From a virus (Duplodnaviria > Caudoviricetes), in the IMG/VR virus record IMGVR_UViG_3300020042_003422, positions 1 through 27,191 of that record: 27,191 nt of DNA. One strand, 5' to 3'. The notes under the pieces are model-generated. The model saw nothing but the letters and a program-made list of their open reading frames with translations, searched no databases and had not been told where the DNA came from. A program made the position numbers and the translations under genes. Positions 7,667 through 25,175 of this stretch are shown one piece after another. Position 1 is the stretch's first letter. Each line of letters opens with the position of its first letter.

Positions 7667-8593
7667 ATGGCTTCAAGTTTAGAAATCAACAATTCAACCT
7701 ACGCAGGTGAATTAGCGTTGCCATACATCAACGCAGCCATCCTATCAGGAGATACTTTGGCTAAAAATTATGTAACACTTAAGGAAGGTGTAAAGTACAA
7801 GGCAGTAATGAAGAAGTTGTCAAATGCGGCATCTTTGGTACAAGCTGCATCTTGCGACTTTTCACAAGCTGGAGACTTGCAATTGGATGAGTCAGTTTTG
7901 GTTGTATCTGATTTGAAGGTGAATCTTGAACTTTGCAAAGCTGAATTTGCACGTGACTGGGAAGCGGCTGCTACTGGTCGTGGATTCATCAATGATGTTG
8001 TTCCTGCTAACTTCTCTGATTTCTTGATTGGTTACGCTGCTGCTAAAGTTGCTGAGAACATCGAGTTTACAATTTGGCAAGGTACATCAGGTGCTGGAAC
8101 TTATCCTGCATTTGATGGATTTGAAGAAATTGTTGATGTAAATTCTACTTACTACCGTAATGATTGGACTGCTGGAGCTATGGCTGTTGGTACTGTAATT
8201 GCTAACTTAAATCAAGTAATTGACAACTTGCCAGTTGCATTGATTGGTTCGCCTGAGACCAAGTTGTATATGAACAGACAAACTGCTCAGTTCTATCGCC
8301 AAGCGGTTGCAGCAGATGGTTACTTGCAACAATTCCAAGCGTCTGCAGATTTCAATTTGCAGTTCAATGGTTACGACATTTATGTTTGTCCAGGTATCAG
8401 CAACGGAACTGTAATTGCTGCTCAACCTTCTAACTTGTTTGTAGGTGTAGATGCAAATTCTGATTTCGCTGAAGTAAGAGTAGTTGATATGACTTTGACT
8501 GATGCATCTGACAACGTTCGTATGGCGATGAGATTCCGTGTAGGAGTTCAAGTCGGTGTATTGGGTGACGTTGTTTATTGCTACAACGACTAA
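7667..8593 (+). CDS. Major capsid protein (308 aa)
   Basis: 'TYAGE...YINAAILSG', 'VNLELCK', 'AENIEFTIWQG' and 'SDNVRMAMRF' match Bacteroidota phage HK97-fold capsids. It has an A-rich initiation region and a downstream terminator. Confidence 0.85.
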   Translation: MASSLEINNSTYAGELALPYINAAILSGDTLAKNYVTLKEGVKYKAVMKKLSNAASLVQAASCDFSQAGDLQLDESVLVVSDLKVNLELCKAEFARDWEAAATGRGFINDVVPANFSDFLIGYAAAKVAENIEFTIWQGTSGAGTYPAFDGFEEIVDVNSTYYRNDWTAGAMAVGTVIANLNQVIDNLPVALIGSPETKLYMNRQTAQFYRQAVAADGYLQQFQASADFNLQFNGYDIYVCPGISNGTVIAAQPSNLFVGVDANSDFAEVRVVDMTLTDASDNVRMAMRFRVGVQVGVLGDVVYCYND

Positions 8594-9229: not shown

Positions 9230-9634
9230 ATGAATTACTTACAGACTAATACCGCCTCGCAAACCCTTCTTCTTTCATTAGAAGAGGGGGTTTTGCTTTT
9301 ACCTTCATTCACGGATTACTTACTTGTGATTCAAAATGAAATCACACTACAACTATTTGCGGTTATTCCTATCTTAATTGATAGCAATGAGCGAATAACT
9401 ACTTTGAGCGTTAGCACTGATACAGATGATGCGGAGAATGGATGCGTTTTAATAACTCAAAGTGGCCGTTACAATTATATAATTTATGGTCAAAATTCAT
9501 CTACTAATTTAGATCCTGAGGATGCTGTTGTAATTGGAGAATTGAAGCGTGGATTCATTGAATTCACTGCGCTAACTGAATACTTTGACCAGCCCAACCT
9601 AACAATCCCTAATGACATCGAATACAATGGCTAA
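9230..9634 (+). CDS. Putative virion structural/head-completion protein
   Basis: Beta-rich acidic 134-aa ORF with 'YNYIIYGQNSSTNLDP'. It overlaps the portal start. Confidence 0.5.
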   Translation: MNYLQTNTASQTLLLSLEEGVLLLPSFTDYLLVIQNEITLQLFAVIPILIDSNERITTLSVSTDTDDAENGCVLITQSGRYNYIIYGQNSSTNLDPEDAVVIGELKRGFIEFTALTEYFDQPNLTIPNDIEYNG

Positions 9635-11942
9635 TATAGAAGATATAAAACAACGCATTGGTGCAACTCAAATTGAGATGTCCAAGTACGTTAAAATTGA
9701 TCCCATTGAAAGAGAAGATAGAAAGGGATGGGTTAACTATGGAGAGGGCAATGCCTTCCCACAATACTTGATTGAATTATACAATGAGTCACCAATACAC
9801 GGCGCACTGGTGAACTCAATTAGTTATATGATTGCAGGCCGTGAATTAACGGCATCAACTCCACAAGCTGTAAAAGAAATTAGCCGTTTGAATTTAGATT
9901 CAATAATTCATCCGACATCATTGGATTTGAAGTTGCAAGGTGGATTTTATTGGGAAATAATTTGGTCAATGGATAGAAGCACCATCGCACAAATAAATCA
10001 TTTGCCATTTGAGAATTGCAGGTTAGCTTGTAGTGATGAGGCAGATGATGTTGTTGGTGTGTGGTATTCGAGAGACTGGACTGATACGAGAAAGAAAAAG
10101 AATACACCTCATTTCATTCCGATGTTCGATGTGAATACGAATGAAGCTGAACCAAAACAAGTATTGTTTGTACATAGTTTAATGGTTGGGAGTGAATATT
10201 ATCCAAAGCCTGACTATGTGGGTGCAATCAATGAGATTGAAAAGATGCGCCAACTTAGCGAGTATCAAGTCAACTTAATTCTCAATGGATTCTTCCCATC
10301 ACTTATAGCATCTTTCAATAATGGTATCCCATCTTTGGAGGAGCAGCATCTAATCAAGAATCAATTGCAAATGTCAATTCAAGGTTCGGAGAATGCAGGT
10401 AAAGTCTTGACATTTTTCAACGAAGAACGTGACCGAGGTGTGGAATTTACTCCTTTCCCAGTATCCGATATGGATAAGCAATTCACCACGTTGGTTGACC
10501 AATCAATGGAGGCAATTTTAGTAAGCCATAGAGTAACATCTCCTTTGTTATTTGGTGTACGTGCAGGTGGTGGATTGGGTAGTAATACCGATGAGATGCG
10601 AACTGCAATGCGCATATTCCAACGTCAAGTAATTGAGCCATTTCAGAGACTAATTACAGGCGCAACCGAAGAAGTGTTAGCCTCATTTGGTGTGTTTGCT
10701 AATGTCAAAATTGTACAGAATGATTTGTTCGCTGATGAGATGGTAGTAGATGCAGCAGGTGAAGTAGCACAACCAGTTGATGTTGCAAGTCAGGCATTGA
10801 ACGGAGCTCAAATTGCATCACTACTTGAGATAATTGTACAGACTACTGCGAATGTGTTGACCATTCCAAGCGCAAAGGCCATCACTAAAGCATCATTCCC
10901 AATGCTATCTGATGTTCAGATAAGCGAGATATTCGATAACCTTTCCAATGTTGTAATTGATCCTACTGAAGTAGTTCAAAAAAAAAAAGTTGAGTTAGAA
11001 AGCTACGAGCCAACCGATGAGATGGCAGGTGAAGCTGAGTTAGGATTGAAGTGGAGAGATGAATACGGCAGGGGTGGAACGGAGGTCGGAGTAGCGAGAG
11101 CGAGAGACATAAGCAATAAACGCAATTTGTCTTTTGATACAGTACAAAGAATGAACTCTTATTTTTCACGGCACGAAGTAGACAAAGAAGCTACCGGATG
11201 GAATCAAGGTGAGGATGGTTTTCCAACTGCTGGTCGCATTGCTTGGCAATTGTGGGGTGGTGATGCAGGTAGAGATTGGGCAAAGCGAATAGTGGAGCGT
11301 GTAAACGTTGAGCAGTCAGCTCACGAATTAGATGCTATTGCTGAAGAACTTATCCAACTCGGTGAAGATGCAAATGAGGACTGGATTTTGATAGATGAGT
11401 ACGATGTTGACTATGATGAGGATGATGCAGAAAACGAAGCTATCTCACACATCTTTGATGCAGTCGAAGTTCATCAAGTAAGTACTGGAACGGCAAGACC
11501 AAACGCAGTAAGTGACCAAGATGCTACTATCGATGAACGTAAGTATTACACACGTTATCGATACAGCGGTAGAATCACAGATGTCACTCGACCTTTTTGT
11601 ACTAAAATGCTACAAGCGGATAAGCTATATCGCAAAGAAGATATAATGGCAATGAACAATAGGGCAGTTAACCCGGGATGGGGGCCAAATGGTGCTGATA
11701 CTTATAGCTGTTGGTTGTATAAAGGTGGCGGCAACTGCCATCACATTTGGAAAAAGCAGTTGTACATTAGTGCAAAAGGATTTGGATTGGATTTGAATAG
11801 TCCAAATGTCCGCACTCAGGCTTGGACAAGAGCTGAAAAGGCTGGGTACAAAATTCGCAATAATTATTTGGTAGAAAAAAGACCTATTGATATGCCATAC
11901 AATGGATTCCTACCAACAAATCCACGTTTTGGAAACAAATAA
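9627..11942 (+). CDS. Portal protein with long C-terminal extension (WGG helical domain plus MuF-like domain)
   Basis: Portal motifs 'WVNYGEGNAFPQYLIELYNESPIHGA', 'YYPKPDY', 'GSENAGK' and 'HRVTSPLLFG' lie in the first ~365 aa. The ATG at 9627 is preferred to 9612 because it overlaps the upstream stop. About 320 aa follow the QKKKV tract. Confidence 0.8.
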   Translation: MANIEDIKQRIGATQIEMSKYVKIDPIEREDRKGWVNYGEGNAFPQYLIELYNESPIHGALVNSISYMIAGRELTASTPQAVKEISRLNLDSIIHPTSLDLKLQGGFYWEIIWSMDRSTIAQINHLPFENCRLACSDEADDVVGVWYSRDWTDTRKKKNTPHFIPMFDVNTNEAEPKQVLFVHSLMVGSEYYPKPDYVGAINEIEKMRQLSEYQVNLILNGFFPSLIASFNNGIPSLEEQHLIKNQLQMSIQGSENAGKVLTFFNEERDRGVEFTPFPVSDMDKQFTTLVDQSMEAILVSHRVTSPLLFGVRAGGGLGSNTDEMRTAMRIFQRQVIEPFQRLITGATEEVLASFGVFANVKIVQNDLFADEMVVDAAGEVAQPVDVASQALNGAQIASLLEIIVQTTANVLTIPSAKAITKASFPMLSDVQISEIFDNLSNVVIDPTEVVQKKKVELESYEPTDEMAGEAELGLKWRDEYGRGGTEVGVARARDISNKRNLSFDTVQRMNSYFSRHEVDKEATGWNQGEDGFPTAGRIAWQLWGGDAGRDWAKRIVERVNVEQSAHELDAIAEELIQLGEDANEDWILIDEYDVDYDEDDAENEAISHIFDAVEVHQVSTGTARPNAVSDQDATIDERKYYTRYRYSGRITDVTRPFCTKMLQADKLYRKEDIMAMNNRAVNPGWGPNGADTYSCWLYKGGGNCHHIWKKQLYISAKGFGLDLNSPNVRTQAWTRAEKAGYKIRNNYLVEKRPIDMPYNGFLPTNPRFGNK

Positions 11943-15662: not shown

Positions 15663-16220
15663 TTACCTACGTACTCCGAAATCAGATTTACGTAATTTGC
15701 ACATCCGACCATCTGACTTGTGATGAAATACAATCCCTTCAATATCTTTTGAAGCGTCAGACAAATACGCCCTCAAATCTTCAAAATCTAAAGAAGGTAA
15801 TTGCAACACTTCGCATCCGTGTTTAACAAGTTTATGCCCTTCTATTTTTTCTGGGTTGCCTTGTACTTTATTTCCGCAAAGTTCATAAGTTCCATTCTCT
15901 TTATTTTCCAAAGCATCAAAGCCTTCAAAGAAATATTTATCTTCATTTTTACTTCTATCGCATTTTAACCAATGTGGATGATGTCCTGTTATTAAATCAG
16001 CTTCTTGACAAGGTATTGCACCTTCAGGAACTTGACGTCCTTTTTTAACATCGTATCTTTTGTAAAGTTCACCGTTAATAATAGCGGTTGCAGTTCCATC
16101 AAATTTACGTGTTGCAATTGCTTCGCCATCAAACACCCATTGATTTTCGGGATTGATTTCATTGATAACTCTGCCCAAGTCGTTTGAGTCTTTTTTGAAT
16201 AATGTGCTAATTTTTTTCAT
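15663..16220 (-). CDS. ATP-dependent RNA ligase-like nucleotidyltransferase (DUF5565/RLIG1-like)
   Basis: Motif I 'ATRKFDGT' (KxDG adenylation lysine), 'GTYELCG' (III), 'EGIVF' (IV) and 'CKLRK' (V). There is no OB-fold, which argues against a DNA ligase. Confidence 0.7.
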   Translation of the reverse strand: MKKISTLFKKDSNDLGRVINEINPENQWVFDGEAIATRKFDGTATAIINGELYKRYDVKKGRQVPEGAIPCQEADLITGHHPHWLKCDRSKNEDKYFFEGFDALENKENGTYELCGNKVQGNPEKIEGHKLVKHGCEVLQLPSLDFEDLRAYLSDASKDIEGIVFHHKSDGRMCKLRKSDFGVRR

Positions 16221-16249: not shown

Positions 16250-17536
16250 TTAAGCGAATGCGTACTTTCCAAAATTCTTTTTGAGTTCGTAGTATGCCCT
16301 CATCATTATTGCATCCGCAAAGTCAGGAGATATACCGTGTCTTTTTTTCAAATCTTCTTTGTTGGTCACACGCAGCTTTCCATCACTATCTATCTTTTCA
16401 CGTCTAATCATTTCGAGTTCCTTGACAATGGTGTCCTTATGCGTTGACTCAAATGTGATGGCATTACTTGAAATCAATTCGCCAAGTTTGAAATAGCAGT
16501 CGCATTTCAAATTCATATAATTGTCACGCACTGCTTTTGATCCGTTCAAGAATCCTTTGCACCTGATAAAGTCAACCACTCCACCACCTATCCCATCCTC
16601 ATCCACCAGTACGTTAGATAATCTTACTGAGTGATTTTTGATAAGTTCATTGATGGTATCCACAACCTCATTGATTGGTTTGTGTTTTAATACTACAAAC
16701 TTTTCAGCGTGTAAGTTATTCCACACAATAATGACTGTCCTATCGTCTCCCATTCGTGCGATGTCGGCAGTAATGAATTTGTCTCCCAAATTAGTGGATG
16801 GGCGAAAGCATCGCAGTAAATCATCGTATTCATACAACCTATCTTTTGTCTCATCGTAATCCCAATCACCTTCAAGTAATCTTTTCCGGTCAATGTCGGG
16901 TAGCATCTGTAATGATTCGATATACACGGGTGAGATGTGTGGGTTGTCCGTTGGCAATGCCTGAATGAATCTTCTATCTTTTCTTATTGAGCCATTACGT
17001 TGAGCATCAAAGAACTCTCTGTATAGCCATCCCTTATGCGGATTGCAGGTCAATAGTCCTTTTGGATTGTCATTGATTAACTTGTAACGTACACGTGAAT
17101 TTAAGATATTGATACACTTTTCGCTGACCTCACTCGCCTCGTCAACAAAGTAGTCTGTGATTTCAAGCGACCCAAATCTTGAAAAATCTGCGTCTGAAGG
17201 CATATCCGCTAAGTCCATCAAGATTATTTGTGAGCCATTGAACCAATTGATTACGTGGTCTTGGCCATTGTACGTGAAATGTTTTCCTGCGATGAGATTA
17301 TATTTCGTGCAAAGCTCAAAGAACGTGGCAAGAGTGGATAGTCGTAACTTTTTAAGTTCAGCACGGCCAATAAGTCCACGTGTACCTGGATACTTTAACC
17401 GTCTTTTAATTTGCCAATCGCAACCAAGAAACGACTTTCCAGAACCTGCACTTCCGCCATATAATAATTGACGGCAATCATTGTCAATTGCAAGATAGGA
17501 TAGAGCCTCTTTTTGCTTATCGTGGAATTGTATCAT
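16250..17536 (-). CDS. terL: Terminase large subunit
   Basis: 'KQ' Q-motif, Walker A 'GGSAGSGKS', Walker B 'YFVDEASE', coupling motif 'TCNP' and RNase-H nuclease acidic residues 'ADIARMGDD' and 'SPDFADA'. Confidence 0.92.
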   Translation of the reverse strand: MIQFHDKQKEALSYLAIDNDCRQLLYGGSAGSGKSFLGCDWQIKRRLKYPGTRGLIGRAELKKLRLSTLATFFELCTKYNLIAGKHFTYNGQDHVINWFNGSQIILMDLADMPSDADFSRFGSLEITDYFVDEASEVSEKCINILNSRVRYKLINDNPKGLLTCNPHKGWLYREFFDAQRNGSIRKDRRFIQALPTDNPHISPVYIESLQMLPDIDRKRLLEGDWDYDETKDRLYEYDDLLRCFRPSTNLGDKFITADIARMGDDRTVIIVWNNLHAEKFVVLKHKPINEVVDTINELIKNHSVRLSNVLVDEDGIGGGVVDFIRCKGFLNGSKAVRDNYMNLKCDCYFKLGELISSNAITFESTHKDTIVKELEMIRREKIDSDGKLRVTNKEDLKKRHGISPDFADAIMMRAYYELKKNFGKYAFA

Positions 17537-19366: not shown

Positions 19367-19799
19367 TGTTTAGCATTAGTTTAGTTGTTGTGCAATTATA
19401 ACCATTATTTTCAAATGAGTTAAAAAAATCATTTATCAAAAATCTCCATTGCCCATCTATTCGATAAAGGTCGCAGAACTTTTTGAGTGAGTGGAGAACG
19501 GTTGAGTGATCAACACCAACTGGAGCGCCGATGTCTCTCAAAGTCTTTTTGTTGTTGGTGAAATAATTGAAAGCAATTACAATAGCACGTGCATCAACAA
19601 CCTCTCTTTTCCGTGTGCGACTTTGAATGTCACTATATTTAACATTCATCAAGTCTTTGCAGGCATTAGTGATGATATCATCAATGACTTTGGTTTCTTC
19701 AATAACTTTAATTTCTTCAGGTTGATTGGTGACCAATTCACGTAGTTCTGCAAGTTGCCTTTCGATTGCGGTTATTGAGTTTAATAATATCTCATTCAT
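19245..19799 (-). CDS. DnaA C-terminal (domain IV) HTH-containing protein
   Basis: 'SRTRKREVVDAR...TLRDIG...DHSTVLHSLKK' matches the DnaA domain IV signature. There is no AAA+ domain. Confidence 0.8.
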   Translation of the reverse strand: MNEILLNSITAIERQLAELRELVTNQPEEIKVIEETKVIDDIITNACKDLMNVKYSDIQSRTRKREVVDARAIVIAFNYFTNNKKTLRDIGAPVGVDHSTVLHSLKKFCDLYRIDGQWRFLINDFFNSFENNGYNCTTTKLMLNNGHKYFNLRGSLVKRESEPVGKSIEPTKKIERMSFHCAIS

Positions 19800-23342: not shown

Positions 23343-23350
23343 TATCTTTG
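23343..23350 (+). promoter_or_regulatory. Bacteroidota -7 element TATCTTTG upstream of the ncRNA locus
   Basis: Exact TAnnTTTG match in intergenic DNA. No clear -33 element. Confidence 0.5.
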
Positions 23351-23373
23351 TAGTGTTGAGTGGTTAAGCGTTT

Positions 23374-23428
23374 TCCCCCTTTCGTTATAACCCTCAACAA
23401 GTTAATACGATTGGGGGAGTTTTTTTTT
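23374..23428 (+). terminator. Terminator-like hairpin with U9 tract, overlapping an alternative stem
   Basis: TCCCCC/GGGGGA, TCGT/ACGA and TAAC/GTTA stems, followed by G and T9. Confidence 0.5.
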
Positions 23429-23520
23429 AGTCAGGTGGCGGAATGGTAGACGCTATAACGAATAAGAGAGCAAGGCTACACGTTGATCCTTGCGTACAGG
23501 TTCGAATCCTGTCCTGACTA
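23429..23520 (+). tRNA. tRNA-like element (Leu-type scaffold) with unpaired anticodon region
   Basis: Acceptor AGTCAGG/CCTGACT (7 bp) plus discriminator A, D-arm GCGGAATGGTAGACGC, T-arm ACAGG-TTCGAAT-CCTGT and variable stem GCAAGG/CCTTGC. No anticodon stem and no encoded CCA. Confidence 0.75.
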
Positions 23521-23525
23521 CAACT

Positions 23526-23790
23526 CAATCATTGGCGGTGCAAATACGCTTGGATGATTGTTTTAAGCGTTACAAGGGGATGATGGCACAGCGCAGCGGT
23601 AGCATTAAGGACAAAGCCGCAAGACCATCACGAGAGCCGAATATCTCGTTAAAGTAGTGTCCAGGTCAAAGGTCAACGGTGATACTTTGAAACTTGAAGG
23701 TGAGGGACTCATTCGACAGATTGAATCTTAATCATCAAAGGGGAGTGACCACTGAGTTGAAAGTCAGTAGGATATTCTCATTCCCTTTTG
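23526..23790 (+). ncRNA. Putative multi-stem structured RNA of unknown family
   Basis: No ORF of 60 aa or more. At least five stems are visible by eye, including a 13-bp stem 23736-23748/23778-23790. Confidence 0.5.
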
Positions 23791-23843
23791 GTTCAGGATC
23801 TATTCTCTAGATTAAATATTATTACTTATATTTGTTATTATAT

Positions 23844-24884: not shown

Positions 24885-25175
24885 ATGGGATTACCAAAAG
24901 GACAAACCAATAACCCGAACGGGAGACCAGTAGGTTCTAAGTCTGAAAAGACAAAGCAATGGGAATCATTGGGTGAATCAATCACAGGTCAACAAGCCGA
25001 GCAGTTCAACGCATTCTTAGATAAGCTATGGGCAAGTCGCAATGATGAGGACAAAATGATTGCATCTGAACTTTACTTAAAGACTTTGGAATACTTCAAA
25101 CCAAAGCAGGCAAGAAATACCATTGTCGGAGATACCGACAACCCAGTGCAAATTATTATTAGTGATAAGTTATGA
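24885..25175 (+). CDS. Terminase small subunit-like protein
   Basis: N-terminal 'KGQTNNPNGRPVGSK', a helical body and C-terminal 'PVQIII' strand are typical of TerS. Confidence 0.55.
   Translation: MGLPKGQTNNPNGRPVGSKSEKTKQWESLGESITGQQAEQFNAFLDKLWASRNDEDKMIASELYLKTLEYFKPKQARNTIVGDTDNPVQIIISDKL

Follow-up and report, generated by a model that had tools for sequence, protein, structure and literature searches.

The closest annotated analogues of the RNA element described in this work are RNA1 and RNA2 of phage T5, both of which carry the annotation 'tRNA-like stable RNA with unknown functions' (AY543070). In RNA1 a Leu-type D arm, a GT dinucleotide and a T arm surround an enlarged middle, and in RNA2 a variant form of the T arm borders a long middle. 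Our subject is the 92-nt element at positions 23429-23520 (plus strand) of the virus record IMGVR_UViG_3300020042_003422, which was analysed over its whole length of 27,191 bases (hereafter the window). The element is built like these T5 RNAs, the top half of a tRNA enclosing an enlarged middle that does not decode, and the arms of RNA1 as well as the T-arm variant of RNA2 recur in the family to which it belongs. The T5 RNAs differ in having other acceptors and middles, RNA1 retains an anticodon stem and the remnant of a Leu-like loop, and both are single genes in a tRNA cluster; no homology beyond the tRNA motifs was found, and no T5 record was among our sequence matches. We know of no interior swapping in RNA1 or RNA2. 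The element at 23429-23520 is a member of an uncatalogued, non-decoding family under selection, whose interiors are exchangeable.

Other known RNAs share parts of this build. Irregular or allo-tRNAs encoded in polycistrons (PMC5389517) and the tRNA-Other of Bacillus cereus (PMC3399842) are, according to the accessible parts of these papers, also tRNA-shaped, in some cases non-translational, and located in mobile contexts, but they keep an anticodon arm or have an acceptor branch, of 12 bp in the allo-tRNAs (PMC5389517), that is split 8/4 or 9/3, whereas the element has a 7/5 split and an exchanged interior. The tRNA-like domain of tmRNA and the YrlA Y RNAs consist, like the element, of a tRNA top half without anticodon. 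The element matched neither of these Rfam models, it has a U3-A70 pair instead of G3-U70, contains no open reading frame (ORF) and is not permuted; the combination typical of tmRNA, G3-U70 with a tag ORF and pseudoknots, was not found in it. In engineered tRNA scaffolds the passenger RNA occupies the anticodon position of a tRNA body, from which it gains processing and stability; the element differs from these in being natural and Leu-based, and we infer the passenger role of its middle. An unannotated look-alike, with Leu-type D and T arms around a middle of ~120 nt and with a different acceptor, is present in the Flavobacterium phage FL-1 (KY421186.2, about 19625-19798; L514, about 1495-1668), where it gave no Rfam match at an E value of 0.5. 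As a cultured phage, FL-1 is a possible laboratory model for such RNAs. A literature search, with subscription papers and old scans mostly outside its coverage, returned no description of the frame family, although the 10,006 viral candidate RNAs which, by the accessible part of PMC10690425, are collected in its supplements may include this family or RNA-A, the structured RNA that follows the element. T5-type tRNA-like stable RNAs of similar build were already known; the observations made here comprise a control scan with the acceptor left free, the interior swaps at identical loci, the presence of one copy at several sites, the dispensability of the element, the loss of A73 in close copies and the FL-1 look-alike.

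The element consists of two constant halves and an exchangeable interior, all read on the plus strand. The constant 5' half (23429-23453) comprises the acceptor strand, U8 and a Leu-type D arm (A14, A15, G18G19), with a D stem of 3 bp (23438-23440/23451-23453) and a Leu-type loop. The constant 3' half (23496-23520) comprises the T arm (23496-23512), the other acceptor strand and the discriminator A23520; CCA is not encoded. The acceptor strands 23429-23435 and 23513-23519 form seven Watson-Crick pairs out of seven. Between the halves, both of which are putative recombination handles, lies a 42-nt interior (23454-23495) made up of 16 unpaired nucleotides at the anticodon position (23454-23469), a 6-bp stem (23470-23475/23488-23493) closing a 12-nt loop, and GT at 23494-23495, which supplies U48. 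Direct reading thus bore out the anatomy given in an earlier note on this DNA, namely a perfect acceptor, A73, a Leu-type D arm, a T arm and a 6-bp stem followed by GT. We also agree with the note that no stem can form at the anticodon position and that U33 is absent: there is no 5-bp anticodon stem with a 7-nt loop and U33, the 18-nt stretch that contains the 16-nt segment folds with 0 kcal/mol, and the Rfam tRNA model left this region unaligned. The 'TAA-GA remnant' that the note saw here is not convincing, an A standing where U33 would precede it, no stem being present and TAA occurring twice in the AU-rich 16-mer; nothing links it to a former anticodon.

ARAGORN and the Rfam covariance models, which the note had proposed to run, gave zero genes in the window and a tRNA-model match of 39.5 bits (gathering score 29, E 3.2e-5), respectively. 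The minimum free energy (MFE) of the whole element is modest (z -1.39), thus the case for the element rests on the covariance-model match and the homologues. The frame folds as a canonical 7/5 acceptor-T helix with a D/T elbow (U8:A14, G18G19, T loop), and all leucyl-tRNA synthetase (LeuRS) determinants, A73, A15:U48, G18G19 and A20a, are present. Compared with class II tRNA-Leu (RF00005), and in particular with the tRNA-Leu(CAA) gene of a Chitinophagaceae metagenome-assembled genome (MAG; L461), the D arm differs only by one extra base in the host gene, 21 of the 27 bases from 23494 to the 3' end agree, and A15:U48, the GT before the T arm and A73 are shared. By these comparisons the frame is derived from tRNA-Leu. 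Unlike tRNA-Leu, nearly all members of the family lack an anticodon arm; they have a near-fixed acceptor starting with A1-U72, carry unrelated interiors, occur in multiple copies and are exchanged.

To delimit the family we used two scans. The first, with a pattern of the T arm and the 3' acceptor strand that fixes the acceptor, yielded at least 179 matches in at least 138 stretches, corresponding to at least 165 distinct elements of 54 to more than 200 nt; six matches had no recognisable 5' end. Among the matches listed, a canonical anticodon arm was found in one of 165 distinct elements, A15:U48 was present in 127, GG in 147 and A73 in 149, and U8, A14, A15:U48, GG and A73 occurred together in 100, including the window copy. 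CCA was encoded in 4 of these 165 members as compared with 22 of 105 canonical phage tRNA genes. The second scan required only the D arm and G7, leaving the acceptor nearly free, and covered at least 123 stretches; after removal of 11 rows without a T arm and of one cut row, the distinct T-arm-bearing elements among the matches listed numbered 100, of which 75 were non-canonical and 25 canonical. The acceptor of the window copy was present in 56 of the 75 non-canonical and in none of the 25 canonical elements, and where the acceptors of non-canonical elements differed, they were mostly still paired through double changes. Across the family the acceptor and T-arm sequences are near-constant. 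Up to six matches lie within 3.1 kb, and some phages have several copies. The family is a large one and belongs to uncultured phages, probably of Bacteroidota; the element or its exact frame occurred in no record of a collection of 50,697 records of cultured phages. tRNA finders overlook these copies, as happened in the window, or assign arbitrary anticodons to them. The family, the acceptor control and the D-arm/T-arm comparison support the notion of a Leu-derived, non-decoding frame under selection, which is not a lone decayed copy.

The interiors, about 23-140 nt in length, are mostly unrelated to one another: 167 of them fell into 143 clusters. The clearest case of exchange is the comparison of L032 and L035, where 150 of 150 bases are identical on each side, and the window interior stands in one and a 25-nt interior in the other; the L035 copy has compensatory changes in the D and T stems. 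Swaps at the same locus were also seen at L149/L373/L241, L236/L394 and L320/L342 (flank identity 0.84-0.99), i.e. at four loci in all. The flanks are exchanged as well: among pairs with different interiors, 18 have just the upstream flank in common and 11 just the downstream one. Of 56 loci that have both genes flanking the window's site, six contain the same interior, three another one and 47 no element, and at many empty sites the next module follows immediately on the U tract of the upstream hairpin. In a tree of the two flanking genes with 53 rows, only 13 of 50 branches were well supported and L035 was scored as having no element; the scatter of the element label on it matched that of shuffled labels. 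The simplest cause of the exchange would be recombination in the constant halves.

Copies with the window interior also occur at other sites. One is located behind the terminase of another phage, whose terminase shows 80% identity, and one, in L428, adjoins a tRNA gene, the gene context there being different; the distance of L422 and L428 from the clade of the window was judged from local gene context. A diverged form with a broken acceptor is present in a 68.7-kb record without match to the window's terminase or to the protein encoded at 7667-8593. Because a tRNA-model match of any kind was found in only 10 of 40 relatives, and in 4 of 18 near-complete ones, the element must be regarded as accessory. 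Within the subfamily of the window copy the interior is nearly invariant. The earlier note had proposed to test whether the arms covary while the anticodon region is free; this region is not simply free, being part of an interior that is swapped as a whole unit and is near-invariant in the subfamily. An antisense or guide role within the genome was rejected: the longest matches of the interior in the window, 10 nt sense and 9 nt antisense, did not exceed shuffled values, and L015 has not kept the 9-nt complement that the upstream hairpin contains.

At their ends the family members look like genuine phage tRNA genes. U-1 was present in 91 of 117 copies (79 of 105 canonical phage tRNAs) and C74 in 111 of 117 (101 of 105), which makes processing by tRNA enzymes plausible. 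In 10 of 159 members a -7 promoter motif ends 0-9 nt ahead of +1, while the other 10-nt bins held 0-2. In two groups the predicted interior fold is preserved by substitutions, with five double and eight single pair-keeping changes against one break in the L028 group and two double and five single changes against no break in the L282 group. In the subfamily of the window copy one pair of the hairpin is C-G, U-G or U-A across copies, and a candidate pseudoknot of 23456-23460 with the hairpin loop keeps four of five pairs in one diverged copy. An RNA-library contig with a depth of 41.6 covers 23420-23640 with 12 differing letters, and seven joints in RNA-library contigs carry other interiors; the contigs show no ends, and DNA carry-over is possible. 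Among 19 runs of public RNA libraries none contained half of the sequence words; four were compared, as contigs only, in which uncovered parts are uninformative.

We favour, with moderate confidence, the explanation that the element is a tRNA-Leu-derived shell, processed by the host, which carries a small passenger RNA exchanged by recombination. The RNA would be transcribed from the upstream promoter by reading through the hairpin, cut by RNase P at +1, trimmed at its 3' end near N73/C74 and provided with CCA, giving a stable RNA that is barred from translation. Homologous recombination in the two constant halves would swap the interiors and also reshuffle adjacent modules; the selected product would be the passenger, and the tRNA shape its packaging. 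Several observations weigh against this explanation. On average the interiors show only weak structure (mean z -0.68 vs. -0.18 for upstream controls, with 12 of 117 below -2), and across 17 interior clusters 40 pair-keeping changes stood against 43 breaks, counts that come from single-sequence folds and have no null model. The covariation in the subfamily, including that of the candidate pseudoknot, was not significant (106 of 500 shuffles), and the near-identity within the subfamily could reflect recent spread instead of selection. No source or target of the interiors was found: 16 of 117 matched outside masked frames in 1.1 Mb of loci, 15 of these being unmasked or cut copies of the family and one a T-arm fragment, and exact 16-mers of the window interior occurred, beyond the subfamily's own copies, only in unrelated contexts. 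Transcription, strand, ends and processing of the element are putative. Moreover, the role of a shell alone leaves the near-frozen letters of the acceptor and the T stem unexplained, as RNase P and RNase Z need shape only; to account for them, recombination would have to homogenise the letters constantly, or a partner would have to read the sequence.

The main rival sees the RNA as a decoy against defences that target tRNAs: enzymes that read the acceptor end or the elbow would be bound by the constant top half, and the interiors would diversify to bait or escape different effectors. The near-frozen letters suggest a sequence reader, and counter-defence genes are typically as patchy in their presence (see the near-complete relatives above) and as quickly exchanged; some phages carry several copies, and AriB, by the accessible part of a recent preprint (bioRxiv 10.1101/2025.02.04.636281), contacts the D loop too. 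The same part of the preprint, however, makes AriB specificity dependent on anticodon-arm sequence and loop contacts, which the element cannot offer, and ascribes rescue from PARIS to real, non-cleavable tRNAs; in addition, the frozen acceptor is unlike the host-type Leu acceptors that we have seen. We regard the decoy as unlikely, and the anticodon-nuclease version suggested in the earlier note loses ground with respect to AriB, the only nuclease compared. Another idea is that of a device or selfish repeat acting at the DNA level, in which the constant halves would serve recombination and thereby the shuffling of small cassettes, with a small role for RNA. The swaps terminate inside the constant halves, where the flanks exchange too (the 18 upstream-only and 11 downstream-only pairs), the distribution of the element on the tree is no different from that of shuffled labels, and up to six matches lie in 3.1 kb. 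This idea seems rather improbable in view of the tertiary features kept in the listed members (A15:U48 in 127 and GG in 147 of the 165), the compensatory stem changes in L035, and the tRNA-like leaders and promoters at +1, none of which a DNA handle would require.

Two explanations remain. If the RNA were leucylated, it could act as a sponge for synthetase, leucine or elongation factor EF-Tu. As for the point of the earlier note that LeuRS is largely indifferent to the anticodon, E. coli tRNA-Leu without anticodon and variable arms remains chargeable, as stated in the accessible parts of PMC9976931 and PMC2377443, and 100 of the 165 listed members keep the full set of determinants. The note's statement that the element keeps Leu-type identity is true of the window copy, but 6 of the 16 copies with the window interior, some of whose records may be from the same phage, have G73 or U73, whereas canonical phage tRNA-Leu had A73 in 22 of 22 cases; with Aquifex LeuRS, the accessible part of PMC2377443 gives a 143-fold and a 45-fold decrease of leucylation for A73G and A73U, respectively. 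The loss of A73 in these copies weakens the leucylation idea. By our own sum from Table 2 of PMC3239215, the T-stem pairs amount to +0.4 kcal/mol compared to -0.4 for the commonest phage Leu stem, so the T stem of the window copy is predicted to bind EF-Tu ~0.8 kcal/mol more weakly, which speaks against the EF-Tu sponge of the earlier note. A sponge does not account for the exchange of interiors either, and we consider it quite improbable. Finally, the element could be a decayed tRNA-Leu or an attP-type tRNA fragment, two of the outcomes that the note had named as fatal to its proposal. The derivation from tRNA-Leu and the broken acceptor of one copy (L293) would fit, but both halves are present and paired, not a partial copy as in attP, every close homologue is equally non-canonical, and the acceptor is absent from the 25 canonical tRNAs listed in the D-arm scan. 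Among 185,579 genomes the 3' pattern matched 36 times, on inspection never in a canonical host tRNA with this acceptor, and no integrase was found among the 32 window ORFs scanned. Decay and attP origin are thus largely refuted and have only a very small probability.

Upstream of the element, a promoter motif TAnnTTTG (23343-23350, plus strand), which we take to be the Bacteroidota-type -7 consensus, is located 24-27 nt before a long hairpin in 39 of 56 loci, all of them among the 46 in which the hairpin was found. The hairpin with its tract of nine U (23373-23428, plus strand; z -4.14) lies directly 5' of the element and is terminator-like, therefore expression of the element would need read-through; module exchange occurs right after the U tract. 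A sigma-70 promoter scan, outside the scope of which Bacteroidota promoters fall, missed the long hairpin. The segment 23343-23428 unites the conserved promoter motif, the long hairpin, whose stem varies but remains paired, and the U tract; it may itself function as an attenuator or be a small RNA. Downstream, RNA-A (23525-23808, plus strand) begins 5 nt past the discriminator. It is a separate conserved structured RNA of ~285 nt without Rfam match and with strong covariation, in which 27 of 77 pairs predicted by RNAalifold from 14 sequences show double-sided changes. At 19 of the 56 loci RNA-A is present but the element is missing, hence the element is not obligatory for the release of RNA-A. 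Of the suggestion in the earlier note that the element is a processing signal for flanking RNAs, the processing by tRNA enzymes remains plausible, but an obligatory function for the downstream RNA does not.

At sites lacking the element the upstream U tract forms part of the first helix of RNA-A; at sites with the element a different, compensated sequence takes the place of the tract. In relatives the place of RNA-A can be taken by other conserved non-coding modules, B (L042, L059) and C (L045, L019). Motif tests on the 56 loci gave 22 with A, 12 with B, 11 with C and 11 with none, and no locus had two modules, which suggests that A, B and C can stand in for one another in a single task. Just 5' of frames, tRNA genes or RNA-A in L002, L004, L073, L236, L129 and L428 there recurs a small hairpin whose loop is of the GAAAGA type; the two instances checked (L002 and L073) had no Rfam match at gathering score. 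In another phage contig (L126, 81-442, minus strand) a tmRNA (49.2 bits) adjoins three family frames.

The window encodes a terminase, portal, head protease, holin, endolysin, sigma factor and methylase, and its complete relatives measure about 29-34 kb. The large terminase gene (16250-17536, minus strand) is surrounded by replication-type genes and lies at a considerable distance from the portal gene (9612-11942); the product of 24885-25175, which had no PHROG match, presumably resembles a small terminase. Seventeen of the 36 genome-collection loci with the 3' pattern were labelled Bacteroidota, and the two that were inspected lie among phage-like genes, their identities being judged by eye. 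The host is probably a member of the Bacteroidota, MAG labels on short contigs being weak evidence. An RNA ligase gene (phrog_14301; 15663-16220, minus strand) lies behind the terminase. A link between the ligase and the element was considered and rejected: the ligase was found in one of 40 relatives, which has no element, and it is absent from the complete element-bearing relatives G008, G012 and G019. In other phages (L290) the ligase site is occupied by a copy of the tRNA-like element instead.

Swaps at the same locus turn the vague notion of a 'pseudo-tRNA' into a frame and a passenger, which can be tested separately. Copies that are missed or given an arbitrary anticodon contaminate phage tRNA statistics. 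The family also bears on the tRNA-like RNAs of T5, which are annotated yet unexplained. On a broader reading, which is tentative and which we think more likely wrong than right, Bacteroidota phages would share a natural tRNA-scaffold library, in which a single Leu shell serves as expression chassis and recombination socket for well over 100 folded payloads, baits or aptamers directed against host defences or rival phages, swapped as cassettes. Should the frame be the product, the family would represent a counter-defence decoy of a new type; should it be the passenger, nature would here express RNAs from a tRNA scaffold whose cassettes are exchanged by an inherent mechanism.
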